Source: a virus. Taken from it: DNA of 64,000 nucleotides. Positions 1 through 29,527 of the stretch are shown piece by piece (within the stretch, counting starts at the first letter, position 1; each line of letters begins with the position of its first letter). The position numbers and the translations under genes are program-made. The notes beneath the pieces are model-generated. The model was not told the DNA's origin, ran no database searches, and worked only from the letters and a program-made list of their open reading frames with translations. The DNA lies in IMG/VR virus record IMGVR_UViG_3300037961_003440, positions 1-64,000 of that record. One strand, written 5' to 3'.

Positions 1-269
1 ATTATGAAAGCCAAATAATAGATGAGTTAAAAAAATTAAATAAATTTGTAGATTATGTAGGTAATAATGATTTTAAATCATCACTTAGGCGTTGGCTTAT
101 AACACAAGTAGCCGAGATAAGTATTACTAATGATGAAATATTTGATGAAAATTTTGACACCATAATAAGAGAGAGATTAAGTAAATTTAATTTAATAGAT
201 AACAATGTTATATTTTCAAGTACTGCCTTTTCGTTTTTAGTTAAATTAATTGACCAAAACCTTCCTTAA
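1..269 (+). CDS. Partial hypothetical protein (3' end, frame 3)
   Basis: Open frame from position 3 (YESQIIDELKK...) to TAA at 267-269. Confidence 0.7.
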   Translation, partial: YESQIIDELKKLNKFVDYVGNNDFKSSLRRWLITQVAEISITNDEIFDENFDTIIRERLSKFNLIDNNVIFSSTAFSFLVKLIDQNLP

Positions 270-318: not shown

Positions 319-789
319 ATGTGGGCTACTATACTTAAGGGTAAAGCCACATCTAAATATATTAAAAACTATGTGTATAAGCATGGTTTAACTGAAGAAT
401 TTTTACCAGCAGATTATATAATTCAAAATATAAAAGCGAAGGGTGGTAGACAATCCGGTAATTTTACACAGAATAGTATAGTACCAACTTTAAAGGCATT
501 AGTTAGAGATGGTTTAGCAGAATCAAAAAGGGAAAATAAATGGGATGGTAGTAGAAATAGAGAAGTTTTACTGTTTAAAAAATTACCAGAACCTTTAGTA
601 AAATCAAATTGGGAAGATACAGTAGATGAAATGGTTGGTATTAATACCGACTTTGAAGATATTTATAATACATTAGCAAAAAAATTCAAATTTAATGCAC
701 CATCAAGAAAGGAACTTAATGAATATTTATCAAATAATTATAAACTAACAAGTATGTGGGCAAATTTATGGAGTAGGGAAGAACAATGA
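319..789 (+). CDS. Hypothetical protein with N-terminal W-x-x-ILK tag, possible winged-helix fold
   Basis: Starts MWATILKG; GAGGG RBS; TLKALVRDGLAES resembles a wHTH helix. Confidence 0.75.
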   Translation: MWATILKGKATSKYIKNYVYKHGLTEEFLPADYIIQNIKAKGGRQSGNFTQNSIVPTLKALVRDGLAESKRENKWDGSRNREVLLFKKLPEPLVKSNWEDTVDEMVGINTDFEDIYNTLAKKFKFNAPSRKELNEYLSNNYKLTSMWANLWSREEQ

Positions 790-1097
790 CATGGAAAATA
801 ATATTAAAACAAATAAGAAGAGTAGACCGTAAAGGTGAAGAAATAAGTCAAACAAGAATGGCGGGCGGAAGTAAAGCCGATGATTTATTAGAAGTAGATG
901 AAAGAAACTTAGATGTAGATGAAACATTTGAAGATGTATATGATAGTAAAACTGATGATGAATTAGCGAGGGCTACTAAACAAGATATTATTACAGAAAT
1001 TGAGTATTATCTTAAAGGACTATCTAAGGAAAAATTAATTGATATTTTAGTTAGAACTAAAGGAGATATTAGATTAAAGGATGACCCATTTGAGTGA
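786..1097 (+). CDS. Acidic hypothetical protein, tagged (MTWKIILKQ)
   Basis: ATGA overlap with upstream gene; tag motif. Confidence 0.8.
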   Translation: MTWKIILKQIRRVDRKGEEISQTRMAGGSKADDLLEVDERNLDVDETFEDVYDSKTDDELARATKQDIITEIEYYLKGLSKEKLIDILVRTKGDIRLKDDPFE

Positions 1098-1857
1098 TTA
1101 TATGACTTCTCCAGATATTCAAGCATCTTTAGAAAATGCTGAAGAAATTGCAAAATTAACAGGCCGTTCAAAAGGTGATGTTATTGCAGATTTGCTTGAT
1201 GATGGTAAATTAAATAATTCTAATGCTCTAAAAGAAAATACTTCTGCTATTGATAGAGCAACAGAAATGGCTAACAAAACTCATAAATTATTAACTGCTT
1301 TAATCCCTATACTTATTTTATTATCAACAAGTGGTTTAGAATTAACAGGTATTATTGACCTTACTCCCGCAGGTAATGGTGATGATGATGAATGGTTTTG
1401 GGAAGATGAAGATGGTAATGAATATGATGATATGATTTGGGGTTGTACAAATGATGCGGCAGAAAACTATGACCCTGAAGCAAATGTTGATGATGGTTCT
1501 TGTATTCCGTTAGAAGAATGTGAACCATTATTTTATGATTACTATTTAGATAAAATTGCAAATACATCTTTAGAATTTACATATGATGTTGATGTTAATT
1601 GTGATGAGGTACAACAAGTAGAAGTACAGTTTTTAGTTTATGATATTAATGGTACATATGAAGAACCATTTAATTATTCAATAGATATATGGGATGTATA
1701 TAATGGAGATGCTGAATACAGAAATATGTCTTTAGGTAGTTTTACTAATGGTAGTTATGATGCATATGTTTATTTAATAAATGATGATAACATAGTAATA
1801 GACGAAATTATTTGGTATAATATTGAGTTAGAAGCAAGAACAGAAGATGAGGTATAA
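1081..1857 (+). CDS. Single-pass membrane protein with GCT-x-NY-x-DDGSC motif and acidic beta-rich domain
   Basis: Hydrophobic LLTALIPILILLST; GCTNDAAENYDPEANVDDGSC; start may be 1102. Confidence 0.75.
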   Translation: MTHLSDYMTSPDIQASLENAEEIAKLTGRSKGDVIADLLDDGKLNNSNALKENTSAIDRATEMANKTHKLLTALIPILILLSTSGLELTGIIDLTPAGNGDDDEWFWEDEDGNEYDDMIWGCTNDAAENYDPEANVDDGSCIPLEECEPLFYDYYLDKIANTSLEFTYDVDVNCDEVQQVEVQFLVYDINGTYEEPFNYSIDIWDVYNGDAEYRNMSLGSFTNGSYDAYVYLINDDNIVIDEIIWYNIELEARTEDEV

Positions 1858-1859
1858 TT

Positions 1860-2111
1860 ATGTGGAAAAATATATTAAAAGCAAAAGTACCTGCTGTAAA
1901 AACAAAGCAATATTATACCTATGTAAAATTTATTAAAAAAATTCTAAAAGATGAAGGTGGTGCTGCTGGTATGAAGAATTTTATAGAGGCTGGAAATAAA
2001 ATAGATGGCTTTGATGAAAAATATTTAAAATATGTTATTAGTGATGCAATAGACCATGATGATTGGTTGGCTGAACATGAACATGGAGATTATTATCTAA
2101 AGGAGGATTAA
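1860..2111 (+). CDS. Hypothetical protein, tagged (MWKNILKA)
   Basis: GAGGT RBS; tag motif. Confidence 0.8.
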   Translation: MWKNILKAKVPAVKTKQYYTYVKFIKKILKDEGGAAGMKNFIEAGNKIDGFDEKYLKYVISDAIDHDDWLAEHEHGDYYLKED

Positions 2112-2112
2112 T

Positions 2113-2376
2113 ATGTCTTGGGAAAATATTTTAAAAGGTAATGAAGTTTTTGTATTATATCAAACCTATGAAGTACACGCACGAGACCCTTATTATACAG
2201 TTGATGCTGATGATGTTGTTGGTATTTTTACTTCAAAAGATAAAATGGTAGAATATTTAGAAAGAAAAAATCTTGTTAAACCAAATACGGAAAGAAGTTT
2301 AGAAGGTATGTTATCAGAAGTTATGATGAGTTTTGCTATATACACCCTTGATAAACCAAAGGAGGGGTATGAATGA
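2113..2376 (+). CDS. Hypothetical protein, tagged (MSWENILKG)
   Basis: GGAGG RBS; tag motif. Confidence 0.8.
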   Translation: MSWENILKGNEVFVLYQTYEVHARDPYYTVDADDVVGIFTSKDKMVEYLERKNLVKPNTERSLEGMLSEVMMSFAIYTLDKPKEGYE

Positions 2377-2693
2377 CTTGGGAAGATATTTTAAAAAGAA
2401 AAAAGCGCAAATCAAAAAAGCGCAAACCTAAGAAAAAAGAAGATATGAGAGTAGGTCGTGTTTATCCTTCAGATAGAGCAGGTAAAAAAATTATGATGCT
2501 AACGCATGAGGGTAAAAAAATTCATGCAGGTGCTAAAGGATATGGTAATTATAAAGGAAAGGGAAAGAATAGAGGTGGGGGAACACATACTAATAAAAAA
2601 CGCAGGGCTAATTTTAAAGCAAGACATAACTGCGACCAATGTAAAGGTAGAATTACAACTCCTAAATGTTTAGCGTGTAAAAAATTGTGGTGA
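2373..2693 (+). CDS. Highly basic protein, tagged (MTWEDILKR), resembling a small basic family of marine and giant viruses
   Basis: KK...KKIHAGAKGY...RRANFKARH...LW pattern; K/R-rich. Confidence 0.75.
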   Translation: MTWEDILKRKKRKSKKRKPKKKEDMRVGRVYPSDRAGKKIMMLTHEGKKIHAGAKGYGNYKGKGKNRGGGTHTNKKRRANFKARHNCDQCKGRITTPKCLACKKLW

Positions 2694-2698
2694 TTATT

Positions 2699-3742
2699 TT
2701 GAATTGGGAGGATATAATTCAAAAGAAAAGCAAAGCCCGTAGAAGGAAGGGTGCTAAAAGAGCCAAGAAAAAAACAAGGCGTGATGGTAAATCTAAAGGA
2801 AAAAGAGATGCTTGTTATTATAAAGTTAGAAGGCGTTATAAAAAATGGCCTTCGGCTTATGCTTCAGGTGCATTAGTACAATGTCGTAAAGTAGGTGCTA
2901 AAAATTGGGGAAATTCTGTTAAAAAATCTGAATCAAAATGGATGACAGAATTATCAGCAGGTAAAAAAAAATTATTAAATGAGCAACCTTCTATTAAAGT
3001 AGAATTCCCCGAATTATCTTTTCCCGATAATGAATCTGAATTATCAGAAGTTATGAATATAAGAAGTAAATACGAAATGGACAAAGATGTTGAAAAGGAT
3101 TTAGACCAAAATAATAATCAAATGATGTTAGATATTGTAGGTGAAGAAGAATCAGATTGGGAACAATTTTTACAAGATATAAGAATTTACAATATTAAAT
3201 TAAAAATGCAATATAAAAGACCAAGACCATATGAAATTTCAGATAAATTAAATTCTATTACAGATACTGATGATACTCCTTCTTTTCCAAGCGGTCATGC
3301 TATGGAGGCTTATGCTTTAGCAGAAGTATTATCAAATGATTATCCTGAAAAAGAAGAAGAATTATTTAATATGGCTGAAGCGATTGCTTTATCAAGAGTA
3401 TTAATGGGTAATCATTTTCCAAGCGATATAGAAGCAGGTGAAAAAGTAGGATTAATATTTGCTAAAGCATATCTTAATAGTGATATAAATAAATCTTGGG
3501 AAGATTTTATATTTAAAGGGTGGGTTGATTGTTCTTCATGTGGTAAAGGAAAAAAGCGTAGACCGTGTGGTAGAAAAGATGCTTCTAAAGGACAAAAAAG
3601 AAGATGCCGACCAACTTGTTCAGCGTGTAAAGATTACAAAAGACGAGCAGGTAAAAGAGGAAAGAAAAAGAAAAGAAGAAAGGGAACTTTTAGTTTAGAA
3701 GATAAATATGGACTTCACGGTTGGTTTAAAAGGAGGGGTTAA
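2699..3742 (+). CDS. Multi-module protein: basic Cys domain + PAP2/haloperoxidase-family phosphatase + basic Cys domain; tagged (MNWEDIIQK)
   Basis: PAP2 motifs KMQYKRPRP, SFPSGH, SRVLMGNHFPSD; probable TTG start at 2699 after GGTGA. Confidence 0.85.
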   Translation: MNWEDIIQKKSKARRRKGAKRAKKKTRRDGKSKGKRDACYYKVRRRYKKWPSAYASGALVQCRKVGAKNWGNSVKKSESKWMTELSAGKKKLLNEQPSIKVEFPELSFPDNESELSEVMNIRSKYEMDKDVEKDLDQNNNQMMLDIVGEEESDWEQFLQDIRIYNIKLKMQYKRPRPYEISDKLNSITDTDDTPSFPSGHAMEAYALAEVLSNDYPEKEEELFNMAEAIALSRVLMGNHFPSDIEAGEKVGLIFAKAYLNSDINKSWEDFIFKGWVDCSSCGKGKKRRPCGRKDASKGQKRRCRPTCSACKDYKRRAGKRGKKKKRRKGTFSLEDKYGLHGWFKRRG

Positions 3743-3743
3743 T

Positions 3744-4475
3744 ATTTCATGGAAAGATATTCTTAAGTCTAATTATACTAATGTTAACGACTTTCAATTA
3801 TTTTTATCAGATGTATTTAATATTCCCAAAGAAGATAGTAAAAACATTAAAGCGTCACAAGGTCTTATGCAAGCAACAAGTATTGGAAAATTTATGAATG
3901 ACATTACTGAACAAGAATTTTATAGATTAATGAGTCTTGCTGAAGAAAAAAGGTATCAAGAATTAATTGATAATTTAGAAGAACTAAAAGAAAAATCAGT
4001 TAAACAAAGAAAAAGAGAATATAATCAAAGACCTGAAAGAAGGGCATATGAGAAGGAATATAGACAAAGACCGGAAGTTAGAGAGAAAAACATAGAAAGA
4101 GATAGGAAAAGATACCAAAAAATTAAAGAGAAAAGAGAAAAAGAAAGAAAAGAATATGAAGCAAGTCCTGAATATGCCCGAAAGAAAAAACAAAAAGAAA
4201 AAGAAAGGAAAGAAAAAGAGCGTGCTTATAAAAGGGCTTACAATCAAAGACCGGAAGTTAAAGAAAGAAATAGACAAAGAGCGAAAACACCAGAAGTTAG
4301 AGAAAGAAAAAGAGAATATGAGTCAAGACCTGAAGTTAAAGAAAGAAGAAGGCTATACAGGGAAAGACCGGAAGTTAAAGAAAGAAGAAAAGAATACAAA
4401 CGAAAATACTCAAAAACTTCTAAATATAAAAATTACATAAATCGAAAAAATCGTGAAAAGAGGGAGAAATTGTAA
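3744..4475 (+). CDS. Basic coiled-coil protein with RPEVKER repeats; tagged ([I/M]SWKDILKS)
   Basis: Track start is 3708, but GGAGG RBS and tag position point to ATT at 3744; about 6 RPE(V)-type repeats. Confidence 0.75.
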   Translation: MSWKDILKSNYTNVNDFQLFLSDVFNIPKEDSKNIKASQGLMQATSIGKFMNDITEQEFYRLMSLAEEKRYQELIDNLEELKEKSVKQRKREYNQRPERRAYEKEYRQRPEVREKNIERDRKRYQKIKEKREKERKEYEASPEYARKKKQKEKERKEKERAYKRAYNQRPEVKERNRQRAKTPEVRERKREYESRPEVKERRRLYRERPEVKERRKEYKRKYSKTSKYKNYINRKNREKREKL

Positions 4476-4801
4476 TGAGTTGGAAAGATATTCTCAAAGC
4501 AAAAAGAATCCCAAGAAAAAAAGGACAACCTGCTAATTCTAAAAAACATTCAGATTTATATACAGATGAAAATCCTAAAGGAACAATACATGGTTTAGGA
4601 TTTAAAACTGTAAAAGATGCAAAACGCTCAGTAGCAAAAATAAAAAGAAGTGATAGAACACACGCTCATAAAACTCAAGCGGCTATTGCTATGGAACAAA
4701 GAGCAAGAGAAATGGGTAAAAAAACTGCGGCAGGTATTTATAGGACTTTTATTAACCAACAAAAGAAAAAGACTAAAGAAAAAAGGAAGCGTAAAAAATG
4801 A
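4475..4801 (+). CDS. Basic protein, tagged (MSWKDILKA), conserved-looking SDLYTDENPKGTIHGLGF domain
   Basis: Tag motif; domain pattern recalled from marine virus hypothetical proteins. Confidence 0.8.
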   Translation: MSWKDILKAKRIPRKKGQPANSKKHSDLYTDENPKGTIHGLGFKTVKDAKRSVAKIKRSDRTHAHKTQAAIAMEQRAREMGKKTAAGIYRTFINQQKKKTKEKRKRKK

Positions 4802-4926
4802 AAGATTTTGTTTATTGTGGTCGCTGTTATGAAACTGATAAAGTTTATCCTTTTGGGTTTTGTAAAAAATGTTGGATTAAACACGGCAAACCTAAAGCGA
4901 TGAATGGTGATATAATTGCCCAATAA
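4798..4926 (+). CDS. 42-aa zinc-finger microprotein (not in ORF track)
   Basis: ATGA overlap; MKDFVYCGRC...FCKKCWIKHG, two CxxC pairs. Confidence 0.65.
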   Translation: MKDFVYCGRCYETDKVYPFGFCKKCWIKHGKPKAMNGDIIAQ

Positions 4927-5026
4927 AAATAAAGTTAGAAAGCCAATAAAAAGAAAAAAAGGAGAACCAAGTCAAAAATCTGAAAAGAAAAGACCTAATA
5001 AACCAAACTATCCGAGAAAGAGATGA
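4916..5026 (+). CDS. 36-aa basic microprotein (not in ORF track)
   Basis: GGTGA RBS then TTG; MPNKNKVRKPIKRKKGEPSQKSEKKRPNKPNYPRKR; fills the gap exactly. Confidence 0.5.
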   Translation: MPNKNKVRKPIKRKKGEPSQKSEKKRPNKPNYPRKR

Positions 5027-5030
5027 TAAT

Positions 5031-5342
5031 ATGTGGGAAAAAATACTCAAGTCTGAATTAATTAAAGTCGGTACTAATATGCAAGATGCTGACTTTTGGC
5101 TTATTAGAGTACATGATGCAAATACAGTAGGTAAGCCTGTTAAAGAATTTAAACCTCAATATATAGGAATTAAAATTATTGCTACTGATAAACTTGACCC
5201 ACAGTTTATGTATTATTGGTTTATGAATTTACAACAGAATCAAAAATATTGGTATCAAATGGCTATACCTGATTCAAGAGGAACATATCATATTAGAATA
5301 TCTGACCTTAAAGATTTAATTAAAAGGATAGTGGTACAATGA
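5031..5342 (+). CDS. Small protein, tagged (MWEKILKS), resembling a stand-alone type I R-M specificity (HsdS TRD-like) domain
   Basis: DADFWLIR...VGKP...IGIK...LDPQFMYY...HIRISDLK pattern; function tentative. Confidence 0.6.
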   Translation: MWEKILKSELIKVGTNMQDADFWLIRVHDANTVGKPVKEFKPQYIGIKIIATDKLDPQFMYYWFMNLQQNQKYWYQMAIPDSRGTYHIRISDLKDLIKRIVVQ

Positions 5343-6478
5343 ATTGGACAACCATATTAAAAAGGAAAAAGATGCACGCTAAAAATTTTAAAACATTTAA
5401 AAAAGTCTTAATAGAATTAGTAGAAGCGATGCCAAATGATGAAGTTTTTACTTTAAATACATTTGAAGTTAAAAGAGATTTGATTGAAAGATTAAAAAAT
5501 GAAAATTTACAAACAAATTCATTAGCAATATGGGAAAAAACGAGCATGGATAATTGGATTAAATCAGTTGGTAATAGGATAGTTTCAAATATGGAAAATG
5601 TAGATGTTGTTTCGAGAAATGATAGACAATACGGTAGACAAGTAGCATTCATAAAAAAGACAAATGATATTACTAAAAATTTAAAACTTGTAAAACCTGA
5701 AGTTTCTGGTAAAGTTAAAAGAAAGAAAAAGCCTCTACCAGATTTTGTAGAAGATGAAAAAGAAAAGCCTCCTGTTAATGAAGAAGAAATATCACCTGAT
5801 TGTTTAATGTACTATAAAAGAATTACAGTTTTGATTGTGGATTTTGTGACTATTGATATGCCTCAAATATTAAATAAGGCTTTAAAATTTGGTTATTGGG
5901 ATAAAACCGGCATTAATACTACATACAATTTTGAGCCGGATGCTAAAACAAAAACAGGAGGAAAATATCCAACACAGTCGTATGATTTTAATTATTATTT
6001 TAGCCCTACTGATAGTACTAATTATAAAGACCTTTTTTATGCGGCAGTTGATTTTACTTTTACTAAATCCGAAAATATACCAAGAAAAGATGCTTGTACT
6101 TTATTATGGTTAATTCATTCTGGTGGTTGGACACCTGTTATTAATGATTTAGATTGGTGGCCTCAAGGTATGCAATTGCAATTAAATACTTATGACAGTA
6201 TTGGATTAAAAAACGCTGGACTTGATTTACAAACTCAAATCATGACAGGTGGAAGCGATTTACCTTCTTTTGGAATTCAATTATATTTTTCTATTGTTAA
6301 GAAACAATATATAAGGTATAATAATTTACCAGATGAAATTAAAAAAGTTTTAACTGATATACATTTTGATGTGCGTAAAGAAACACGAGAATTATTTAAA
6401 AAGATACAAGATATTGCAGACGAATGGGTTAATTCAAATCCTGATTTTGCTAACAAATTTAGGCTTGATAATAAGTAA
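5339..6478 (+). CDS. Hypothetical protein, tagged (MNWTTILKR)
   Basis: 379 aa ORF; tag motif. Confidence 0.8.
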   Translation: MNWTTILKRKKMHAKNFKTFKKVLIELVEAMPNDEVFTLNTFEVKRDLIERLKNENLQTNSLAIWEKTSMDNWIKSVGNRIVSNMENVDVVSRNDRQYGRQVAFIKKTNDITKNLKLVKPEVSGKVKRKKKPLPDFVEDEKEKPPVNEEEISPDCLMYYKRITVLIVDFVTIDMPQILNKALKFGYWDKTGINTTYNFEPDAKTKTGGKYPTQSYDFNYYFSPTDSTNYKDLFYAAVDFTFTKSENIPRKDACTLLWLIHSGGWTPVINDLDWWPQGMQLQLNTYDSIGLKNAGLDLQTQIMTGGSDLPSFGIQLYFSIVKKQYIRYNNLPDEIKKVLTDIHFDVRKETRELFKKIQDIADEWVNSNPDFANKFRLDNK

Positions 6479-6482
6479 TTAA

Positions 6483-6506
6483 TATATAGTAGTTAAAAAA
6501 TAATTG
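6483..6506 (+). promoter_or_regulatory. Putative late promoter TATATA-N4-TTAAAAAATA
   Basis: Intergenic copy of the 276/28211 motif. Confidence 0.5.
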
Positions 6507-6523
6507 AATCAAAGGCGAAAGTC

Positions 6524-6775
6524 ATGTCATGGGAAGATACCTTACAAAAACAGTATCAAGGACTTAATAGTATTATTGATTTTATAGCAAGACAAAGAGA
6601 TATTTTAAAAGAAATGGAGGATTTAGCAAGGGAATCTTTTGGAACTTCGGGTGAAGAAACTAATATTCCTTTTGATGTAGATGAGGCTAAAGACTTACTT
6701 GAAGATTATGAAAAATTTGGTAAGAGTATTGAAAAGTTATTTCAACAAATGATTAGAAAAGGAGAGTTACAATAA
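6524..6775 (+). CDS. Hypothetical helical protein, tagged (MSWEDTLQK)
   Basis: Tag variant. Confidence 0.8.
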   Translation: MSWEDTLQKQYQGLNSIIDFIARQRDILKEMEDLARESFGTSGEETNIPFDVDEAKDLLEDYEKFGKSIEKLFQQMIRKGELQ

Positions 6776-6930
6776 TGACATGGGAAAAATATCTAAAGAG
6801 TATTACAAATAAAGATATTACTGATTGGGAAACAGCATTAAAAGCATTTACTGAAGAAGGTAAAAAGTTAGGTATGCCCTTAGATGTCATTGATTCTATT
6901 GTTAAGGCTTTAAGGAGAAATGAGGAATGA
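6775..6930 (+). CDS. 51-aa protein with two tag copies (MTWEKYLKS...DWETALKA); not in ORF track
   Basis: TAATG overlap upstream, ATGA overlap downstream, GGAG RBS. Confidence 0.8.
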   Translation: MTWEKYLKSITNKDITDWETALKAFTEEGKKLGMPLDVIDSIVKALRRNEE

Positions 6931-8198
6931 CATGGAAAAATATACTTAAAGAAGATGATGACGAACCACAAATTAAACCTGATGGTTCGGTTTTTATTCC
7001 TAATTATGGTTTTAAAAATAAACCTTTTAGGCAAGATAAACAGCCTATTGATAGAGATGAAGAGGGAAAAATTTTACCCGATGAATTAAGAGGAAAAAAG
7101 GTTGGACTTGTTAATTGGTTTAAAACAATAAAGGCAACTTTTCAAGAAATGCTACAAAATACAGGTTATATGGGTAGGAGAGGATTTCAAATATCATCTG
7201 CTGGTGCAAAACCTATGACTCAAGAATCAGGTGCTTCAAAACAGATAGAAATACTTGGTCTACAAATTGCTCAGGAAAATATTGAAACTATGTTAGAAGG
7301 GTATGTTAATTCTATTACTAAATATAGAGGTAAAGGTAAGCAATATCCTGCTGACCTTCCAGAAAATTTTAGTGACGAACAAAGAAGTATTCAAGGAATA
7401 ATGGGTTCTTCCGGCTATAATAGAATTATGGATGCAGGACTTAAATTTTCTGAAGAATTAATGTCGGGTATTTTTGATACTATGTATTTATCAGTAAGGG
7501 CTGAATATGATTCTCCCGATGATGAAGATAATCCACTTGAAGATGTAGACGAAAATGAGTTATTTGAAAAGGCTTCTAATGAACATATACAAGAAATTTG
7601 GTCGGCTCATGGTAATCAAATAACAACACAAGTTAGAAATTTAATTAATAACGCAGGTGAGTATTTAGACGATGTACTAAATGAAGGGGATAAATCTTTA
7701 TTCGATTTAGACGGTGATGGAACTAAAGATATTAATAATACAGATATAAAAAATAGTATTAAAAATACTTTACAACAAGCCTATTCTAAACCTGAAATGA
7801 CAGAATTAATAGCAACATTTACAGCAAATGTTAATTGGGCTTTTGTAATTAAATATGTAAAAGGCCAGCAGGATATGATGGAAAGTGAAGTTGCAGACCA
7901 AACTTCATATAAAGATTTAGGACAAGACCCAGATTTTGAAACAGAAATGGCTAATAGACCTGAAATAAAATATGGTGAAGAATATGGACAAGCAAGACGA
8001 AAATTTGAAGATGAATACAAATCTGACGATACTTACGGAAATGAATTCGACTGGTTTTCTATTTTATCTAAAGAATCAGCAACAGGAATGACTACTAATG
8101 CAGGTTTTACTCCAGCAGTACATAATTTAAGATTTGGTGAAAAACCTCCATGTGAAAGATGTAATGATAAAACTACCCCTTGTGGTTGTGATAACTGA
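6927..8198 (+). CDS. Acidic hypothetical protein, tagged (MTWKNILKE), second tag near C-terminus, Cys-rich tail
   Basis: Internal DWFSILSKE at 8049-8075; CERC...CGC. Confidence 0.85.
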   Translation: MTWKNILKEDDDEPQIKPDGSVFIPNYGFKNKPFRQDKQPIDRDEEGKILPDELRGKKVGLVNWFKTIKATFQEMLQNTGYMGRRGFQISSAGAKPMTQESGASKQIEILGLQIAQENIETMLEGYVNSITKYRGKGKQYPADLPENFSDEQRSIQGIMGSSGYNRIMDAGLKFSEELMSGIFDTMYLSVRAEYDSPDDEDNPLEDVDENELFEKASNEHIQEIWSAHGNQITTQVRNLINNAGEYLDDVLNEGDKSLFDLDGDGTKDINNTDIKNSIKNTLQQAYSKPEMTELIATFTANVNWAFVIKYVKGQQDMMESEVADQTSYKDLGQDPDFETEMANRPEIKYGEEYGQARRKFEDEYKSDDTYGNEFDWFSILSKESATGMTTNAGFTPAVHNLRFGEKPPCERCNDKTTPCGCDN

Positions 8199-9493
8199 TG
8201 AGTAAATTTGAAGGCACAGATTTTGATAATGTTGAACAAGGTTTAAACATTAAATCTATAAAAGGTGCTTATGCCGCATGGGAAAGAAGATGGAATAAAG
8301 GTAGTGCATGGGGAATTGTAGGCGGTAAAAAAGGTGAAGCAAAACCTGATACCGTTTTAGAAACAGTATTAAATCATGGTGATTCTACATATGCTCGTGA
8401 CCAAGCAAGAAGCACAGAAGGATTAGGAGTATTAATTAAAGCATTAAAAGAAGTTTTTGATGGTACTGTAATAGAAACAGCAGAAAAAGAAAAATTACAA
8501 GAAGCAATTGATGATATGTTAGGTGTTTTAAGAGAAGATAAATGGAATCCAAGAAATATACCTTTTAGAACTGTGGTTAGTTTTACTGAAACAGATGATG
8601 AACCTATTGTAGAAAGAGATACAGTTTATGGTCATTACAGAACAGAAGCATATAATGAATATGTTACATGGGCACTTGAAAATAAACCTAATTTTAATGG
8701 TCAATTAGCCGAAACAAAAAGTTCTTGGTATAATGAAAAAAAGGGTGAAGCAAAACCTCCACTTTGGCAAGCAATTACAGGAGAAGGAGAAACAGACTAC
8801 GGTAAAAATGGTTTATTAGCATTAGCAAGACAAGCATTAAAAGGTATTCAAAAAATTAAAATGCCTGATGGTACAAGAATTGCAGTTTTTAATAATTCAA
8901 AAGGGCCGATTCAATTAGCACAAATTAAAAGCGTACAAGAAAAAGTAATTGAAGTATTACAAAACCCTTCTATTTATCCGGCTGGTAAATCAAGAGCACC
9001 TATGAAAGATAGATTAAATGCCGCATTTACAAATGAAAGTTATGCTATTAGAAATAAAGAAGAAGCAGAACTTCTTAATTTTGCAAGAGGTTATGATAGA
9101 ATTGAGGGCATTGAAAAAATTAAAAGCATACAATTAAGATTTCCAACAAATAATATTGCATTAAATAAAACAATTAAAGAAGTACTAAAAATATTAGGTG
9201 AAGATATTAAAACCTATGAAACTCCAAAAGTTAATGAAGGTACTGCTAAACCGGGATTAATTTTGAAACAACAAGGTGAATTTCAAATAGATAAATTTGG
9301 TAGTCAAGTTTCAACATTAGATGAAATGCTACAAAAGAAAACGAGATGTTTTAAACCAAATTGTCCTTATGCTCAATATAGAGGTGGTAGTACTGAAGTT
9401 ACAGTTAAACAAACACAATCATGTTCTAAAAGAAACGAAAGAGGTTGTGCAGGAAATAAAAGTGGTGGAACACAAGGATGGAATAGGAGATAA
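8198..9493 (+). CDS. Hypothetical protein, possible virion protein
   Basis: 431 aa ORF; LILKQ and MLQKK before a Cys-rich tail. Confidence 0.8.
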   Translation: MSKFEGTDFDNVEQGLNIKSIKGAYAAWERRWNKGSAWGIVGGKKGEAKPDTVLETVLNHGDSTYARDQARSTEGLGVLIKALKEVFDGTVIETAEKEKLQEAIDDMLGVLREDKWNPRNIPFRTVVSFTETDDEPIVERDTVYGHYRTEAYNEYVTWALENKPNFNGQLAETKSSWYNEKKGEAKPPLWQAITGEGETDYGKNGLLALARQALKGIQKIKMPDGTRIAVFNNSKGPIQLAQIKSVQEKVIEVLQNPSIYPAGKSRAPMKDRLNAAFTNESYAIRNKEEAELLNFARGYDRIEGIEKIKSIQLRFPTNNIALNKTIKEVLKILGEDIKTYETPKVNEGTAKPGLILKQQGEFQIDKFGSQVSTLDEMLQKKTRCFKPNCPYAQYRGGSTEVTVKQTQSCSKRNERGCAGNKSGGTQGWNRR

Positions 9494-9498
9494 ATAAT

Positions 9499-9684
9499 AT
9501 GAGTTGGACAAATATACTAAAAAGAAAATTAACAGATAAGCAAAAGAAAATTGCTGAAGCGGCTGAACCTAAAGATGAAATTACAGGTGCAGATTTTAAA
9601 GCATTGGCTGAAAAAAATAAAAAAACTGTTACTCGTAAAGATAATAGAAAAAAAGGAAGAGGCGCATTTACAGATAGGGATTGA
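9499..9684 (+). CDS. Small basic protein, tagged (MSWTNILKR)
   Basis: LTDKQKKIA...ITGADFKAL; AGGAG RBS. Confidence 0.8.
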   Translation: MSWTNILKRKLTDKQKKIAEAAEPKDEITGADFKALAEKNKKTVTRKDNRKKGRGAFTDRD

Positions 9685-9689
9685 TTTAA

Positions 9690-10352
9690 ATGACAAGGAA
9701 AGTAAGAAAATCTTGTAAATTCTGTCAGCATGACGAGCGTGATGGATTAGAAGAAGATATACTTGCTGGAAATATTACTTGTGATGAATTAGATAAACAA
9801 AATAATTGGTGGTCAGGAACTTCAAAAAAACATATGCAAAATCATTTAGGGAGTTATCATGATAATTCAAATCCTTCATGTTCTTTATGTACGCACCCTA
9901 ATAGAGCAGAAATAGAAATTAGAATAGCAGAAGGCGAATTAAAATTATCCGAAGTCGCTGAAATGTTATCTTGTTCTGAAGCCCAAATACAATTACACAT
10001 GAAAAAACATTTGCAACCTATTGTTCAACAACATGGTGCTATGGAAGTAGCGAGAATGGATTTAAACGAAATAGATATATTATCAGGAAATGTAACTACA
10101 TTACAAAATAAAGTAAATGAGTTATTAGAAAATACTGATTTAGGTACAAAACAAATTGATTCATTAACAAAATTAGCAAAAGAAATTAGAGAATCTCTAA
10201 AGTATATGTTAGAATTTAAAGGACAATTGGTTCATAAAAGAGAAGAAACTGTTGTTGTTCAACAAGTTGAAATTATACAAAAAGTTTTAATAGAAAAATA
10301 TCCTGAAGTATGGACTGAGATTAGGGATAGTGTAGCGGAGAGATTACAATGA
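9690..10352 (+). CDS. Tandem Zn/HTH-repeat protein; candidate terminase small subunit
   Basis: Two CxxCxH...HxxxH repeats with HTH-like cores, then coiled coil; TerS role is inference. Confidence 0.5.
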   Translation: MTRKVRKSCKFCQHDERDGLEEDILAGNITCDELDKQNNWWSGTSKKHMQNHLGSYHDNSNPSCSLCTHPNRAEIEIRIAEGELKLSEVAEMLSCSEAQIQLHMKKHLQPIVQQHGAMEVARMDLNEIDILSGNVTTLQNKVNELLENTDLGTKQIDSLTKLAKEIRESLKYMLEFKGQLVHKREETVVVQQVEIIQKVLIEKYPEVWTEIRDSVAERLQ

Positions 10353-10606
10353 GTTGGAAAGATATAGTAAAAAGCAGAACCTATTTTACACGACCTGCTT
10401 CAATTGAAGAGGGTGGTAATGAACCTAACCCAAAAACAAAGGAAGATTATGCTCTTGAACAAATGTATAATATGTTAGAAAAAATCCAAACCACAATAGC
10501 AGTAGTAAGAACAATACCGTCTAATCCTGATAATATTGCTTATTTAAAATATCTAAAGGATGCCGAATCTGAATTAAAGAAACTGATAAGGAGGAAAGAA
10601 AAATGA
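10349..10606 (+). CDS. Hypothetical protein, tagged (MSWKDIVKS)
   Basis: Tag motif; ATGA overlap. Confidence 0.8.
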   Translation: MSWKDIVKSRTYFTRPASIEEGGNEPNPKTKEDYALEQMYNMLEKIQTTIAVVRTIPSNPDNIAYLKYLKDAESELKKLIRRKEK

Positions 10607-10911
10607 GTTGGAAAGATATTTTAAAATCTGTTGAAAGAATACCTTATCCTCCACCACAAATAAAACCAAATCCACCACCTCCACCAAAAGGCGACCCTAA
10701 TATGGAAGAATATAGAAATAGAAAATATCAAGGTGGAAAATTAGAATATGAGAATCCTTTTACAAGAAAATTCTTTATGGAACCGCAAAAGAGAAAAGAA
10801 GTTATGAATCAAATAAGAGAACTACAAAGGCAAATTGCTGAAAAGAAAAAAGAATTAGAAAGGTATTCGCAACAAGAAAGACAAGCAACAGGAATGTTTA
10901 GAAATGATTAG
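10603..10911 (+). CDS. Proline-rich/coiled-coil protein, tagged (MSWKDILKS)
   Basis: PYPPPQIKPNPPPPPK; tag motif. Confidence 0.8.
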   Translation: MSWKDILKSVERIPYPPPQIKPNPPPPPKGDPNMEEYRNRKYQGGKLEYENPFTRKFFMEPQKRKEVMNQIRELQRQIAEKKKELERYSQQERQATGMFRND

Positions 10912-10920
10912 GTGAATAAA

Positions 10921-11190
10921 ATGAGTTGGGAAGATATATTAAAAAATAGAAAACAAGTACCAGATAAAAAAATGAGAGATGCTATTGATAAGTTTGTAAA
11001 TAGTAAAGAAGGTAAAACTTCTATAAAAGAAGTAAATCAACATCTTCTAAAAAAGTTTGGTGTAATGGCTATGAAATCACCACCAAGAACAATAAGAACA
11101 TATTTATTTGGTTGGCATTCTGATAAAACAGAAGAATTTGACCCTAATACAATGAGGGCAGATGATTATTATTATGAATTAGAGGAATAA
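10921..11190 (+). CDS. Hypothetical protein, tagged (MSWEDILKN)
   Basis: GGTGA RBS places start at ATG 10921. Confidence 0.8.
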   Translation: MSWEDILKNRKQVPDKKMRDAIDKFVNSKEGKTSIKEVNQHLLKKFGVMAMKSPPRTIRTYLFGWHSDKTEEFDPNTMRADDYYYELEE

Positions 11191-11193
11191 ATA

Positions 11194-11439
11194 ATGGCTA
11201 AAAACGAAGTACAAGATATTAGATTAAATAATATTGAAACAAAGGTTGATAGACATGAATTATTATTAGATAAATTAGCGGATAATCAGTTAGAGTTAAG
11301 TACGAGATTAACGGAGTTAACATCATCAATGGAAGTGCAGAATCAATTAATCGGAGAAGGTTTTGATTTAATTAAAAAAGTAATTATAGGTTTAACAAGT
11401 TGTTTATCAGCAATATTAGTAGGTACACAGGTGATGTAA
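11194..11439 (+). CDS. Coiled-coil protein with C-terminal transmembrane segment
   Basis: Heptad pattern then VIIGLTSCLSAILVG. Confidence 0.75.
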   Translation: MAKNEVQDIRLNNIETKVDRHELLLDKLADNQLELSTRLTELTSSMEVQNQLIGEGFDLIKKVIIGLTSCLSAILVGTQVM

Positions 11440-11440
11440 A

Positions 11441-11803
11441 ATGGGTAAAAAAGAAAAATCATTTAATGATAAATTGGTAAATAAAACAGTATTGCCCGCT
11501 ATATATCTTTGGTTATTGGCTTCAGGTGCTGTTGTTTATACAGGTATTGTAAAACCTGATGTAGTACTAACTAATTTAGACGGTTTTATTGCACTAATAG
11601 CAATTATTGGGGGAATAGCCGCACCCGCATTTAATACTCTTCTTAGAACATGGGAGGCAGAACAAGCAAATGAAATTGTAGAAGTTCCTGCTGAATATGA
11701 ACATAGAAGAAGTTTAGAAGAAGCACAACATAAACATCAAATGTCTATGGAAGCAGAAAATAATACTCATAGTAACACTATGGAAACAATACAAGGTGAA
11801 TAA
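11441..11803 (+). CDS. Two-TM membrane protein (holin-like candidate)
   Basis: VLPAIYLWLLASGAVVYTGIV and GFIALIAIIGGIAAPAF. Confidence 0.7.
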   Translation: MGKKEKSFNDKLVNKTVLPAIYLWLLASGAVVYTGIVKPDVVLTNLDGFIALIAIIGGIAAPAFNTLLRTWEAEQANEIVEVPAEYEHRRSLEEAQHKHQMSMEAENNTHSNTMETIQGE

Positions 11804-11804
11804 A

Positions 11805-12194
11805 ATGACATGGAAAGATATATTAAAAATGCCAATGCCCACAAATGTAGGACAACAGCGAGATGAACGATATAGACAAAGAATAATTGATTATGAGGAA
11901 ATGACAATTGAACCTAAATTAACAGAATTTTTTGAAAGGCAACCATCAGAAACTGAACAAAAATTTGCTATAAAAGTAATTGGTGGCGATGTTGGTAGTG
12001 TTGACCGATGGTTTCCAAACGAAAAACCTGTACCTCTTTATGTTGTAGGAACTGAAACAACAAAAACATTGGGCGGTAATGCTGAATTTGTATTGAAAGT
12101 AATTGGAGAATTATACGATAAAGAAGGTTATCAAGTAACAAAAGACGGCACTAATAAGATATTAATACGACTTGAAGATGATGGAACAATATAA
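11805..12194 (+). CDS. Hypothetical protein, tagged (MTWKDILKM)
   Basis: GGTGA RBS places start at ATG 11805. Confidence 0.8.
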   Translation: MTWKDILKMPMPTNVGQQRDERYRQRIIDYEEMTIEPKLTEFFERQPSETEQKFAIKVIGGDVGSVDRWFPNEKPVPLYVVGTETTKTLGGNAEFVLKVIGELYDKEGYQVTKDGTNKILIRLEDDGTI

Positions 12195-12204
12195 GGTGAT
12201 TTAA

Positions 12205-12411
12205 ATGGTTAAAGAAGAAAAATTAAAAGACGCAGTAGAAGATGCAGAAGATGTAGTTGAAGATGTCTTAGATATAGCAGAAGATTTAGGACTTATTAGT
12301 GAAAAAAAGGCAGATAAAATTCTTGCTAAAGTAAAGCAATATAAGAAACAAATTCTTATTGCTATTCCTACTCTTGTAGCAGTAGTCCTATTAGTACAAT
12401 CTCAATTGTGA
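12205..12411 (+). CDS. Small tail-anchored membrane protein
   Basis: C-terminal ILIAIPTLVAVVLLV; GGTGA RBS. Confidence 0.75.
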   Translation: MVKEEKLKDAVEDAEDVVEDVLDIAEDLGLISEKKADKILAKVKQYKKQILIAIPTLVAVVLLVQSQL

Positions 12412-12420
12412 GGTTGTAAC

Positions 12421-14571
12421 ATGAGTTGGATTTCTATTTTAAAAGCAGATATTCCGCCTATTTCAGTAGGCGCATTAATGTCTAAATTTAGAACAGGAAA
12501 TTTACCAACCAAAGAAGAGATAAGTAAAGTTACAAATCAAGATTTACAAAATAAATATTTAGATTCTGTACTTACCAAATTAAAGGAACAATTTGAATCT
12601 TCTAAAGAAGGTAATGATATACCTGATTCTATTATATCGCAGATGATTAATGGTAAAAGAACAAAGGTTGCTTCAACAAGAGATGAGGCTTTTAAAATTA
12701 TAGAACAAAGATTAAATGACTTAAAAGAATTAACTACTGAAACACAAATAGCAAGCGAGGTAGGTTTTATAGAAGGTTTCAATGAGGTAGAAGGTAAGAA
12801 AACACCATTTGGTAGAACATACGGTGATTTAGTTTCTACTGAAGGTAAAACAAATCAAGAGTGGACTATTGAAACACTTAATGTTCTTTACGATATGATG
12901 GTTAATGAACCGTCTGTTGAGGTTTTATATGCTTTACATAAATTTATAGATGGAAGTACTAATGGTCAATTTAAAAGTGATACAAAGTGGTATAACAAAA
13001 TGGGATTAAATTCTATTGATAATCCTGACCCTAAATTTTTCCAAAATATATTTGATTTGAGATTAGAAGATGAAGTAACGGGCGGCCTTGATACAAGAGT
13101 GTTTGATTTCTTTACAGACAAATACAAATATACTGCTGAAGAAATGCAAAATATTACGGTAGTATCAGGTAAAGAAGATGATAAATACGGTAGAGCAAGT
13201 GAAAGAGTTAGAAGAGAAGGAACAACCGAAAGAAGTAAAATTATTGGTGATGCAAGAACAATGACTATTGGTGAAAAGGGTTCAGAAAGATTACCAACCA
13301 ATGATAATATTGCAAATATGATAAATGATTTAACTGAAAATAATTTTAAAGATTTGGTTTTAAATTTACAAAAGACAAATTCAGCCGAAGGTATATTTAA
13401 GAATATAAAAAATCAAAGTATAGGAATAGTCTATGATATGGCTTTTAAGAAACCGGGAATTGCACAATTAGTAAGAGATATACAAATAAGAAGAAAAGGT
13501 GATTCTGATTCCCAAAGAAAAAGAGATTTTTTAATAGATTGGACTATTAGTTATATTAATAGAAGAATAAATGAGGCAGATGATACTTTAAATATAGGTG
13601 GCTATGATTTATTTTCAACACAAAAATTAAATGAAAGAGATGATGAAGGTGAATTACTATATCCAAGAAGTAGTCCAGAATATAAAACTCATTATAAAAA
13701 TAAGTCTGAATTAAAAGATTGGATTATTAATAAAGTTAATGAAGGCGATGAAACTTGGTCTAAAAGATACAAAGATGATATTAGAAGAAAAAATCAAATG
13801 GATTCACAATTTAGAAAATTACCTGCCGAAGAACAAAAAGAAATACTTGCCGATAATCAAAAAATGAAAGAGTATTTTAATTTTCAAGGTAATACAGGCC
13901 CTGATTTTGTAGATTTAGCATATTCTTTTAATACTTCTAAAGGTGTATCAGATTTTATTGATTTGTTAGGAAAACCTATGAGTCGTTTTCAAAAAAATAT
14001 GTTAGCAGTAATGTATAATTCATATATAGATTTAGGTGTTGACGGCCAAGATAAAATAAATCAAATAATACCTATGGGTAATTTTAGAGGATATTTACCG
14101 ACAGGTAGATTATTTGCTGATGCTCAAGAGCAGACATTTTTAAAATCTATGAGAGCATTTTTTACTGTATTTAAAATGTCGCTACCAAGAGCAAAACTTA
14201 GTACTTTAAATGTAACCTTTTCCGCATTAGTAGCAGAATTCTTTGATAGGATAGATGAGTATTTTAGTGAGATAGATGATACATCAAGTGTTAATGACAG
14301 ATTGTATATTATGGAAGAAATATTAGAAGGTATAGGTCTTGAAGAAAACGCTAATACTTGGTTTAATACCAAAAATGATTTTGAAGAATTAGAATCAATA
14401 ATTGATAAATTAAGAGAAGAAGTCGAAGATGCAATACAGGCAAAACTTATTTCAAATATTCAAACTATTGCCGATGATACTACAAACAAGTACCCTAAGA
14501 TTAGAGAATATTTAATTAGGAAAAAATATCTAAAGCCATTTGTTCCCAAGAATGAGGGGGAGGAAGAATAA
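12421..14571 (+). CDS. Large hypothetical protein, tagged (MSWISILKA); candidate internal virion protein
   Basis: 716 aa; tag motif. Confidence 0.85.
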   Translation: MSWISILKADIPPISVGALMSKFRTGNLPTKEEISKVTNQDLQNKYLDSVLTKLKEQFESSKEGNDIPDSIISQMINGKRTKVASTRDEAFKIIEQRLNDLKELTTETQIASEVGFIEGFNEVEGKKTPFGRTYGDLVSTEGKTNQEWTIETLNVLYDMMVNEPSVEVLYALHKFIDGSTNGQFKSDTKWYNKMGLNSIDNPDPKFFQNIFDLRLEDEVTGGLDTRVFDFFTDKYKYTAEEMQNITVVSGKEDDKYGRASERVRREGTTERSKIIGDARTMTIGEKGSERLPTNDNIANMINDLTENNFKDLVLNLQKTNSAEGIFKNIKNQSIGIVYDMAFKKPGIAQLVRDIQIRRKGDSDSQRKRDFLIDWTISYINRRINEADDTLNIGGYDLFSTQKLNERDDEGELLYPRSSPEYKTHYKNKSELKDWIINKVNEGDETWSKRYKDDIRRKNQMDSQFRKLPAEEQKEILADNQKMKEYFNFQGNTGPDFVDLAYSFNTSKGVSDFIDLLGKPMSRFQKNMLAVMYNSYIDLGVDGQDKINQIIPMGNFRGYLPTGRLFADAQEQTFLKSMRAFFTVFKMSLPRAKLSTLNVTFSALVAEFFDRIDEYFSEIDDTSSVNDRLYIMEEILEGIGLEENANTWFNTKNDFEELESIIDKLREEVEDAIQAKLISNIQTIADDTTNKYPKIREYLIRKKYLKPFVPKNEGEEE

Positions 14572-24923: not shown

Positions 24924-25151
24924 ATGAATGAAGAATTAACAATGTTATTAAAAGAATTAGTAGAGAGAGTAAAGACTTTAGAAACAACAGTATTTAATGC
25001 GGATAATGTATTACTAAAGGCTGGACTTGTAAAAGTAGATGGTGTTAAACCATCAATTCAGACAGCAAGTAGAGTACCAAGTGCTGATACTATTGCTAAA
25101 ATGGATTGGAAAGAAATAGACGAATTAGTTGTAAAAATGAGTGGTGAGTAA
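24924..25151 (+). CDS. Small protein resembling both ends of the scaffold (mini-scaffold candidate)
   Basis: C-terminal IAKMDWKEIDELV vs scaffold IAKM...MSWEELNDLV. Confidence 0.7.
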   Translation: MNEELTMLLKELVERVKTLETTVFNADNVLLKAGLVKVDGVKPSIQTASRVPSADTIAKMDWKEIDELVVKMSGE

Positions 25152-28199: not shown

Positions 28200-28208
28200 G
28201 GGTTATCC

Positions 28209-28230: not shown

Positions 28231-28240
28231 TAATATATCA

Positions 28241-29527
28241 ATGGCTTCTTTGCAAGTTAAACCTATTAGATTAGGTAACCATATTTCAAGCGGTTCAGAA
28301 TTTGCTGTACTAAAAGGTACAGGAAAGGACTTAGTTATTGCTGGATATGCATCTGTTGATGTTGTAGATAAACAAAATGATTTGATTACATTAAGTGCAT
28401 TAAACGAAGCCGCAGAAAAATTTATGAAAAGTGATTATAAAAATGTTATGATTACTCATTCAAATGTACAAGTGGGAGAAGTAATTGATTCTTACACAGA
28501 CACAAAAGGTAATTTGTTAAAGACAGGTTGCGACGATACAGGATTCTTTGTAGTTATTAAAATGAGGAACGATATTGAAAAAGCGAAAGAAGTAGCAAGA
28601 GATATTAAGAGAGGCAAACTTCGTTCATTTAGTATTGGTGGACAGGCTATTAATAAGCATAATGTTCATGACCCCGATATAGGAACATACAAAGAAATAG
28701 ATAAATTAGAACTCCATGAGATAACAATTTGTGAAGAAGGAATTAATCCTGAAGCCAAATTTGAAATCGTGAAGGAAAACAAAAATAAAGGAAGTGAAAA
28801 TATGACCGATGAAATAAGTAAAGCATTAGGCGAGTTTGAAGATATTGTTGCTCAACTACGAAATCAAATGATTTTGAAAGAAGAGGATGATGTTGAAGAT
28901 ATGAAAGATATGTCCGAAGAAATGATGGAAGATAGTAAAGAAGCAGTTTCTCCTGAAGAAAAGGCTTCGGAAATGTATAAAGAAGAAGAAGATGATACTA
29001 AAGAAGCAGTTTCTACTGAAAAGGATAAAGAAGCAAAAGCGGCAGATTCTATTGTTTATGGACATAATGCAACCGGACAAAAAATGGGTGAATCTAATCT
29101 AACAGGAAGATTTGATTCGGAATTTAGCGAATTTATCGCAAGAAAGTCCGATAGCATTTCTACTCTTGACCTAAGTGAAGAAAATATAGCAAAGGCTTAT
29201 GCTCAATTTAAGGCTGAACAAGAAGAAGCAAGAGCATACAATTTGATTAAGAATGAATTTGAAGCAAGATATAATGCCGAATTGAAGGCTGAATCAGATG
29301 CAATTGCAAAAGAAAACTATGATGCAAGTGCTGAAGTAGCGGCTCTAAAGAATGAGTTTGCAGAATTGCGTAAATCTCTTGAGTCAAATAATGAAGTAAT
29401 TGCTAAGGCAGTTTCTTCAACAAATGTTCCAACAGGACTATCTGATGATGTAATCGCAAAGATGAACAATATTAGTGAAATGTCATGGGAAGAATTGAAT
29501 GACCTTGTTAGTGAGGTACAAGGCTGA
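28241..29527 (+). CDS. HK97-type prohead protease fused to C-terminal scaffold
   Basis: IAGYAS, VDKQND, catalytic-like THSN and SFSIGG, HEITICEEGINPEA; acidic coiled-coil tail. Confidence 0.92.
   Translation: MASLQVKPIRLGNHISSGSEFAVLKGTGKDLVIAGYASVDVVDKQNDLITLSALNEAAEKFMKSDYKNVMITHSNVQVGEVIDSYTDTKGNLLKTGCDDTGFFVVIKMRNDIEKAKEVARDIKRGKLRSFSIGGQAINKHNVHDPDIGTYKEIDKLELHEITICEEGINPEAKFEIVKENKNKGSENMTDEISKALGEFEDIVAQLRNQMILKEEDDVEDMKDMSEEMMEDSKEAVSPEEKASEMYKEEEDDTKEAVSTEKDKEAKAADSIVYGHNATGQKMGESNLTGRFDSEFSEFIARKSDSISTLDLSEENIAKAYAQFKAEQEEARAYNLIKNEFEARYNAELKAESDAIAKENYDASAEVAALKNEFAELRKSLESNNEVIAKAVSSTNVPTGLSDDVIAKMNNISEMSWEELNDLVSEVQG
28802..29527 (+). CDS. Nested in-frame scaffold protein (MTDEISKAL...)
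   Basis: Preceded by AAAAATAAAGGAAGTGAAAATATG, nearly identical to the MCP initiation region. Confidence 0.7.
   Translation: MTDEISKALGEFEDIVAQLRNQMILKEEDDVEDMKDMSEEMMEDSKEAVSPEEKASEMYKEEEDDTKEAVSTEKDKEAKAADSIVYGHNATGQKMGESNLTGRFDSEFSEFIARKSDSISTLDLSEENIAKAYAQFKAEQEEARAYNLIKNEFEARYNAELKAESDAIAKENYDASAEVAALKNEFAELRKSLESNNEVIAKAVSSTNVPTGLSDDVIAKMNNISEMSWEELNDLVSEVQG

Follow-up and report, generated by a model that had tools for sequence, protein, structure and literature searches.

A short leader peptide on unrelated soluble proteins of a magrovirus as a candidate capsid address

We analyzed a window of 64,000 nucleotides (nt), bases 1-64000 of the 94,364-bp single-contig virus genome IMGVR_UViG_3300037961_003440 (guanine plus cytosine, G+C, content approximately 30%), in which many otherwise unrelated genes begin with the same short leader, M-[STN]-W-x-[DN]-[IV]-[LI]-K, hereafter the tag. 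Selection acts on the tag as a peptide; the tag is specific to a lineage of viruses and is carried by hundreds of unrelated protein bodies, and its carriers are soluble. The best-supported reading, to which we give slightly better than an even chance, is that the tag brings a rapidly changing repertoire of soluble proteins into the capsid. An earlier note on this DNA, made from its letters alone, had proposed a packaging tag combined with a cleavage site. The packaging part gained comparative support from the likeness of the tag to a scaffold tail, the close packing of tagged genes with head genes, and the solubility of the carriers; the cleavage part came out weaker.

The tagged genes

The tag was verified on each of the 19 open reading frames (ORFs) for which it had been claimed, and two more tagged genes, at genome positions 91658 and 92709, bring the number to 21, all on one strand. 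These are 21 of approximately 30 genes on the array stretch. A GGAGG-like site lies 6-9 nt upstream of each tagged start. Two of the starts are less certain: the ORF at 2699 starts with TTG, and the ORF at 3744 starts either with ATT at 3744 (GGAGG 8 nt upstream) or with ATG at 3708, the tag then occupying residues 14-19. The opening 50 or more bases of the genome are found again at 94008 (genome 94008-94364), which indicates terminal redundancy or a circular assembly with the join inside a tagged gene; ORF 3-269 stands in the window because of this redundancy. The tagged features of the window are as follows.

3..269, + strand, C-terminal end of a tagged gene of approximately 522 residues that starts at genome 92709; ORF open at its 5' end; seven residues precede the tag (residues 8-13)
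319..789, + strand, tagged ORF, 156 residues, MWATILK; decayed internal relic SNWEDTV
786..1097, + strand, tagged ORF, 103 residues, MTWKIILK, acidic
1860..2111, + strand, tagged ORF, 83 residues, MWKNILK; homologue fused behind another tagged module in a relative
2113..2376, + strand, tagged ORF, 87 residues, MSWENILK
2373..2693, + strand, tagged ORF, 106 residues, MTWEDILK, very basic (isoelectric point, pI, 10.7), weak DUF5754 match
2699..3742, + strand, tagged ORF, 347 residues, TTG start, NWEDIIQK
3744..4475, + strand, tagged ORF, 243 residues, ISWKDILK, start at ATT 3744 or ATG 3708, rich in K, R and E, repetitive
4475..4801, + strand, tagged ORF, 108 residues, MSWKDILK, pI 10.9
5031..5342, + strand, tagged ORF, 103 residues, MWEKILK
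5339..6478, + strand, tagged ORF, 379 residues, MNWTTILK
6524..6775, + strand, tagged ORF, 83 residues, MSWEDTLQK; opens a gap-free string of genes through terminase and portal
6775..6930, + strand, tagged ORF, 51 residues, MTWEKYLK; fused in relatives to the family of the next gene
6927..8198, + strand, tagged ORF, 423 residues, MTWKNILK; tag-like DWFSILS close to its C-terminus
9499..9684, + strand, tagged ORF, 61 residues, MSWTNILK, basic
10349..10606, + strand, tagged ORF, 85 residues, MSWKDIVK
10603..10911, + strand, tagged ORF, 102 residues, MSWKDILK
10921..11190, + strand, tagged ORF, 89 residues, MSWEDILK
11805..12194, + strand, tagged ORF, 129 residues, MTWKDILK; family of 9 tagged relatives
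12421..14571, + strand, tagged ORF, 716 residues, MSWISILK; overlaps the following gene, the string running gap-free into terminase

ORF 3744-4475 consists mostly of RPEV[KR]ER-type repeats, and it likely starts at ATT, not at ATG, behind a strong ribosome-binding site. For the 716-residue tagged protein, no relatives were found by an IMG/VR single-protein locus search, by tblastn against a phage collection, or in the ESM Atlas.

The tag across magroviruses

By its sequence, the genome belongs to the ocean archaeal viruses known as magroviruses. Its capsid protein is 26-28% identical to the counterparts in the haloarchaeal viruses HVTV-1 and HCTV-5, HVTV-1 being the nearest cultured relative (28%). 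The gene layout, including a ligase inside the head module, is that described for magroviruses, uncultured viruses of marine group II archaea (PMC5434244). Relatives were collected as loci matched in IMG/VR by a degenerate 24-base tag pattern, plus 80 loci picked by protease homology; five complete relatives of 92-96 kb (G001-G005) were used for tag counts and for the ThiF/E1 test described below.

The degenerate pattern matched more than 119 stretches in IMG/VR, many of them on contigs of 90-96 kb. Most of these loci are magroviruses, with terminase and portal approximately 57-64% identical over their full length and capsid protein approximately 46-52% identical. They hold 620 unique tagged ORFs with a median length of 108 residues, and the tag is lineage-wide. 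When the tag was removed, the bodies fell into 338 BLAST families, 250 of them singletons. The earlier statement that the bodies are unrelated past the tag was therefore essentially right; a few genes of the window are linked through fused relatives.

Strict tags numbered 10-16 in each of the five complete relatives, compared with 0 for a reversed-pattern control, and all lay on one strand save one match that contains a stop codon. In the genome studied, no ORF outside the array begins with the motif on either strand, and the rough chance expectation is fewer than 0.1 N-terminal matches per genome. This agrees with the earlier claim that the replication genes lack the tag. Host proteins showed no enrichment: each of 401 Thermoplasmatota genomes had 0-5 scattered matches, or approximately 1 per 4 Mb, compared with 1 per 7 kb in the virus. 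Cellular genomes generally gave only single scattered matches per contig among the matches listed. The scatter of host matches marks the tag as a feature of the virus lineage and not a host signal. No Sec, Tat, or archaeal class III signal peptide was recognized in it, as there is no hydrophobic core, nothing is conserved past the Lys, and peak hydropathy is 1.25. We found no prior description of the tag in the three main magrovirus papers or in a full-text search for the motif.

Selection on the peptide

The logo of the 620 tags reads M-[STN]-W-[KEFQ]-[DNE]-[IV]-[LI]-K. The Trp is invariant, 94% of tags have the Lys, and past the Lys there is no conservation; acidic residues are mildly enriched two positions past it (30% vs approximately 17% further on). 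The variety of codons had been offered as a sign of selection at the level of the protein. For Ile, Leu, and Lys the argument stands, since their codons in the 620 tags are close to body usage, with Leu spread over six codons, and selection at those positions is therefore on amino acids. It fails for Ser at residue 2, where AGT accounts for 89% of the Ser codons in tags but for 29% of those in bodies. Tagged genes have A as their fourth base in 78% of cases, and in 36% the start codon and the stop of the gene upstream share an ATGA. Part of the preference for S, T, or N at residue 2 therefore arises at the level of the nucleotides.

Solubility of the carriers

Hydropathy was scored by the method of Kyte and Doolittle with a 19-residue window, and the tagged proteins of this genome reach a maximum of 1.25. 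The four membrane proteins encoded in the same array (at 1081, 11194, 11441, and 12205) had been said to lack the tag; they do lack it, and their hydrophobic windows score 1.9-2.25. A membrane-like window was present in 7 of 599 tagged ORFs (1.2%) compared with 14 of 249 untagged array ORFs (5.6%; p = 4e-4). The pI exceeds 9 in 40% of tagged proteins. Recognizable domains were few (GNAT, CCA-adding enzyme, PAP2, pentapeptide repeats, and metallopeptidase), and of 100 tagged representatives scanned with Pfam and PHROGs, very few could be named. One terminase match on a tagged representative was an internal-Met artefact, and tape-measure and tail matches, on non-magrovirus contigs, were judged to be chance single matches.

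Likeness to a scaffold tail and packing with head genes

The head genes downstream of the array, and the elements in them that bear on the tag, are as follows.

17743, terminase, downstream of the tagged array
20551, portal, downstream of the tagged array
24604..24918, + strand, C-terminal 105 residues or so of the 835-residue protein that follows the portal (22414-24921); a separate tagged protein of approximately 113 residues in at least 15 relatives
25098..25148, + strand, tail KMDWKEIDELV... of a 75-residue head-module protein (ORF 24924-25151), from a second family with a scaffold-type tail
25698, ATP-dependent ligase, inside the head module
28241-29527, S78 prohead protease with a long helical part fused at its C-terminus (protease-scaffold)
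29480..29524, + strand, C-terminal tail of the protease-scaffold, MSWEELNDLV...; M414 and W416 invariant among 10 relatives
29555, SU10/HK97-type capsid protein, its residues counted from ATG 29564
29627..29641, + strand, candidate maturation site N-S-L-I-K(-A), capsid protein residues 22-26; Lys invariant and L-L near-invariant in relatives

In 16 relatives the protease-scaffold ends in M-[SD]-W-x-[DE]-[IVL]-[HN]-x-[LM], and the tail is old: it is kept in protease-scaffold representatives down to approximately 35-40% identity. A second family with such a tail comprises proteins of 65-100 residues encoded between portal and protease, found in 43 of the 80 loci chosen by protease homology; its 75-residue member in the window may be a second scaffold-like protein. 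Over these two families in the tag-selected loci, the tail pattern lay no more than 20 residues from the C-terminus in 37 of 39 occurrences, and a scaffold-type tail was present in 59 of the 80 protease-homology loci. We built a matrix from tag residues M-S-W-x-D-I only and applied it to 250,726 internal positions in 963 ORFs of the 80 loci with a cut-off of 9 bits. Among the 64 non-tag matches above 9 bits, 61 were C-terminal tails of the two head-module families. By this measure of sequence, the first six residues of the tag specifically resemble the scaffold tail in this lineage. The equivalent of the tag Lys is not conserved in the tail. The AlphaFold model of the protease-scaffold has two short C-terminal helices, 402-409 and 416-427, with a predicted local distance difference test score (pLDDT) of 66-77. 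No comparable tail or leader was found in the head module of HVTV-1, which is too distant to inform on this point.

Gaps between genes are all below 20 nt from 6524 to 28199, which puts 13 tagged genes into a single string with terminase, portal, and ligase. Across relatives, 82% of 616 tagged genes overlap the upstream gene or sit no more than 12 nt from it, and tagged genes also occur directly after the portal gene and just ahead of the protease gene. A TATA-like box stands ahead of 319, of 6524, and of the protease gene. Among the intergenic gaps of at least 40 nt between the array start and the capsid gene, those at 270-318, 6479-6523, and 28200-28240 each contain a TTTATATA-like box. The three boxes are possible promoters that would split this arm into a few long operons. 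Just upstream of terminase, a 212-residue ORF (17108-17746) ends in KKAWDIIKGR, a tag-like W-x-I-I-K that may be due to chance.

Fusions, relics, and C-terminal copies

The last part of the 835-residue protein after the portal corresponds to the separate tagged protein of relatives listed above, and the relic at the junction, QDDILIK, has lost its Trp. This protein looks like a fusion of modules; a second tag-like stretch without Trp, KKNILKE, lies at residues 80-88 or thereabouts. The ORF at 2699-3742 consists, in order, of a basic module, a PAP2 phosphatase domain without membrane segments, the relic tag KSWEDFIFK, and a Cys-rich basic module; its outer basic modules are stand-alone tagged genes in relatives, and the relic marks the second junction. 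Like the relic SNWEDTV in ORF 319, KSWEDFIFK is decayed. The decay of internal copies argues that the intact motif matters only at a terminus. Full tags also occur at extreme C-termini (...SWRDILKVN, ...SWEEILKC, and ...FRDAWSVLKS in loci L070, L110, and L374), each shortly before the next tagged gene. These may be working tags or the scars of deleted cassettes.

A candidate cleavage site and a second dialect

In the capsid protein, a motif N-x-L-L-K followed by a small residue is near-invariant at about residues 22-35. Its L-L-K resembles the I-L-K of the tag and could be a maturation site.

A sister lineage, with a protease-scaffold 40% identical, carries a different tag, F-[DE]-x-A-W-x-x-L-K (IMG/VR contigs L321-L395). 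The pattern F-x-x-A-W-x-x-L-K occurs there in 3-6 strict copies per record, nearly all on the same strand, and the control gave 0. The copies stand at the N-termini of unrelated proteins, and one stands at a C-terminus. The G+C content of the sister lineage is approximately 54% (L392) and the codons differ. Its capsid protein has E-L-L-K-A at the equivalent place, and the tails of its scaffold and small protein read M-S-W-[DE]-E-[VI]-H. The aliphatic-L-K ending of both tag dialects matches in sequence the near-invariant L-L-K of the capsid protein, and its presence in both dialects and at the capsid site modestly favors a shared protease site.

What the tag may do

If the tag addresses proteins to the capsid, the leader would act as a terminal addressing peptide that docks small soluble proteins to the interior of the procapsid through a contact of the scaffold-tail type. 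The S78 prohead protease would then remove the tag after its Lys, as the capsid L-L-K suggests. The cargo would be enclosed with the DNA and would enter the next host cell with it, as the internal proteins of T4 do, and its roles could be host takeover or anti-defence. Cleavage after the Lys and delivery to the host are plausible steps in such a scheme. A broader proposal, which we hold to be somewhat short of an even chance, is that the tag belongs to an evolvable peptide address code with lineage dialects (M-S-W-x-D-I-L-K in this lineage, F-D-x-A-W-x-x-L-K in the sister lineage described above), one that packs hundreds of interchangeable families into virions, far beyond what is known for T4 and P1, and that genes would join simply by acquiring the leader at a cassette border.

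Several observations weigh against capsid addressing. Twenty-one proteins with a summed length of 4,331 residues would be a large load for one capsid. A cut after the Lys of a C-terminal tag would not release the protein. The array begins beside a divergent control region. Two conserved motifs of the protease, F-x-I-L-K (residues 21-25) and F-D-I-L-K (residues 174-178), were considered as cleavage sites and rejected: both lie within the Pfam S78 match, so they are not independent sites, and they are more likely strands of the fold. Of the cleavage after the tag Lys that the earlier note had proposed, what stands is thus a single candidate outside the tags, the capsid L-L-K. The tag pattern of the window had no match in five sister-lineage records of 86-107 kb. 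The tag takes another form there, but the scaffold tail is kept. The two therefore do not co-vary, and for this reason the argument from mimicry applies to the present lineage only. Apart from a shared W-x-x-aliphatic helix, chance could account in part for the likeness of tag and tail in the present lineage. The AlphaFold models as a whole (pLDDT of 47 for the protease-scaffold and 36 for the capsid protein, from alignments of 10-11 sequences) are too poor to place the motifs. Lastly, a ThiF/E1-like gene is present in 5 of 5 complete tag-bearing relatives and offers another possible partner, considered below.

It is unlikely that the tag is a processing signal only, a propeptide whose removal by the S78 protease of the virus, or by a protease of the host, would activate or time proteins in the cytoplasm without packaging. 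Such a signal would account for the high conservation of the Lys (94% of tags) and for the aliphatic-L-K ending common to both dialects and to the N-terminus of the capsid protein in both lineages. However, S78-type prohead proteases are known to act inside the procapsid, and the motif is not enriched in host genomes. A propeptide would also leave the invariant Trp and the scaffold-tail match unexplained and would make the C-terminal copies pointless.

Slightly less likely again is that the tag addresses some other hub, either as a recognition or acceptor motif (through its conserved Lys) for the virus-encoded ThiF/E1 ubiquitin-like system or as a degron or chaperonin-binding peptide that governs how long takeover proteins last. 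The ThiF/E1-like gene of the five relatives, the fixed distance of the conserved Lys from the hydrophobic pair, and the mild acidic enrichment two positions past the Lys (30% vs approximately 17%) would fit. But the co-occurrence is uninformative, E1 being present in every relative tested, and tagged genes lie on the head-assembly arm and in the head module, not with E1. Nor would such a hub explain the match to a scaffold tail in which the Lys is not conserved. The ThiF/E1-like gene is short in the five relatives (open frame of approximately 185-245 residues), and the match holds stop codons in two.

We consider it very unlikely that the tag is a short amphipathic helix, binding a membrane or interface, that recruits its carriers to the host membrane or an assembly site. 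A peptide of eight residues is too short to bind a membrane stably, past the Lys there is no conserved amphipathic pattern, many carriers are small and highly basic or acidic, and the true membrane proteins of the array have no tag. This outweighs the placement of W, I, and L on one helix face and the likeness to frog dermaseptins, membrane-active helices that start with A-L-W-K-D-I-L-K; the latter is most likely a coincidence of amphipathic design. Least likely is that the 24 bases are a translation-initiation or coupling element or a cassette recombination site encoding a peptide without function: ATGA overlaps do shape residue 2 (AGT in 89% of Ser codons, A as fourth base in 78%) and tag-only scars with fusions and splits at tag borders suggest gain and loss of cassettes at tags, but Ile, Leu, and Lys codons vary as in bodies with Leu over six codons, the peptide logic persists in the sister lineage, where G+C is 54% and the codons differ, and 24 bases this variable would probably be a poor substrate for homologous recombination.

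Significance and comparison with known systems

Most genes of magroviruses lack an assigned function (PMC5434244). A single leader of eight residues would sort about a fifth of the head-arm genes into one functional class and give a handle on hundreds of orphan families. If capsid addressing is correct, archaeal viruses would gain their first described system of this kind, with by far the largest cargo set known, and much of the cargo would probably serve host takeover or anti-defence in the uncultured Poseidoniales. Magroviruses rank with the most abundant viruses of surface seawater. A further use of the tag could be to bring proteins of choice into shells of the HK97 type.

The closest parallel is with phage T4, in which the capsid-targeting sequence (CTS) is an N-terminal propeptide of 10-20 residues on diverse internal proteins and is removed by gp21 (PMC7411985, PMC3012670). 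In the T4 internal proteins IPI-IPIII and Alt, whose counterparts in T-even phages are encoded by variable internal-protein genes, as in the tagged proteins, a short N-terminal peptide is the sole common feature of diverse, often basic, small proteins. In both cases the genes accompany head genes; the T4 cargo is thought to act in anti-defence or takeover, and its peptide is removed by the prohead protease, as proposed here. The two differ in that the gp21-type protease cuts after Glu and works with a separate scaffolding core, whereas the magrovirus S78 protease is fused to the scaffold and would cut after Lys. They differ also in scale, with 21 genes per genome and at least 338 body families here, in viruses of an archaeal host, compared with a handful in T4; the magrovirus set is known from sequence alone. 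To our knowledge the tag has no sequence resemblance to the T4 CTS, and we treat it as an analogue and not a homologue. In phage P1, an N-terminal packaging signal of DarB sends the anti-restriction protein and a reporter into the capsid (PMC9024508). The same paper reports no N-terminal consensus for the P1 Dar internal head proteins (PMC9024508). In contrast, one consensus stands on all candidate cargo here.

Two further systems resemble the proposed contact with the shell. The C-termini of scaffolds and maturation proteases are the site of coat-binding signals in HK97, P22, and herpesvirus UL26/UL26.5, and HK97 gp4 is said to have a C-terminal capsid-docking tail. The magrovirus protease-scaffold and small head protein end in a conserved short helix at the equivalent place, and by analogy we predict that it binds the capsid. 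The tag differs from these tails in being N-terminal and on non-scaffold proteins, and in the sister lineage the tag is different while the tail is the same. In encapsulins and bacterial microcompartments, cargo-loading and encapsulation peptides, which are short, terminal, and amphipathic, dock unrelated enzymes in a shell, which in encapsulins has the HK97 fold. Neither kind of shell contains a genome or is infectious, and the peptides are unrelated in sequence to the tag and are not removed.

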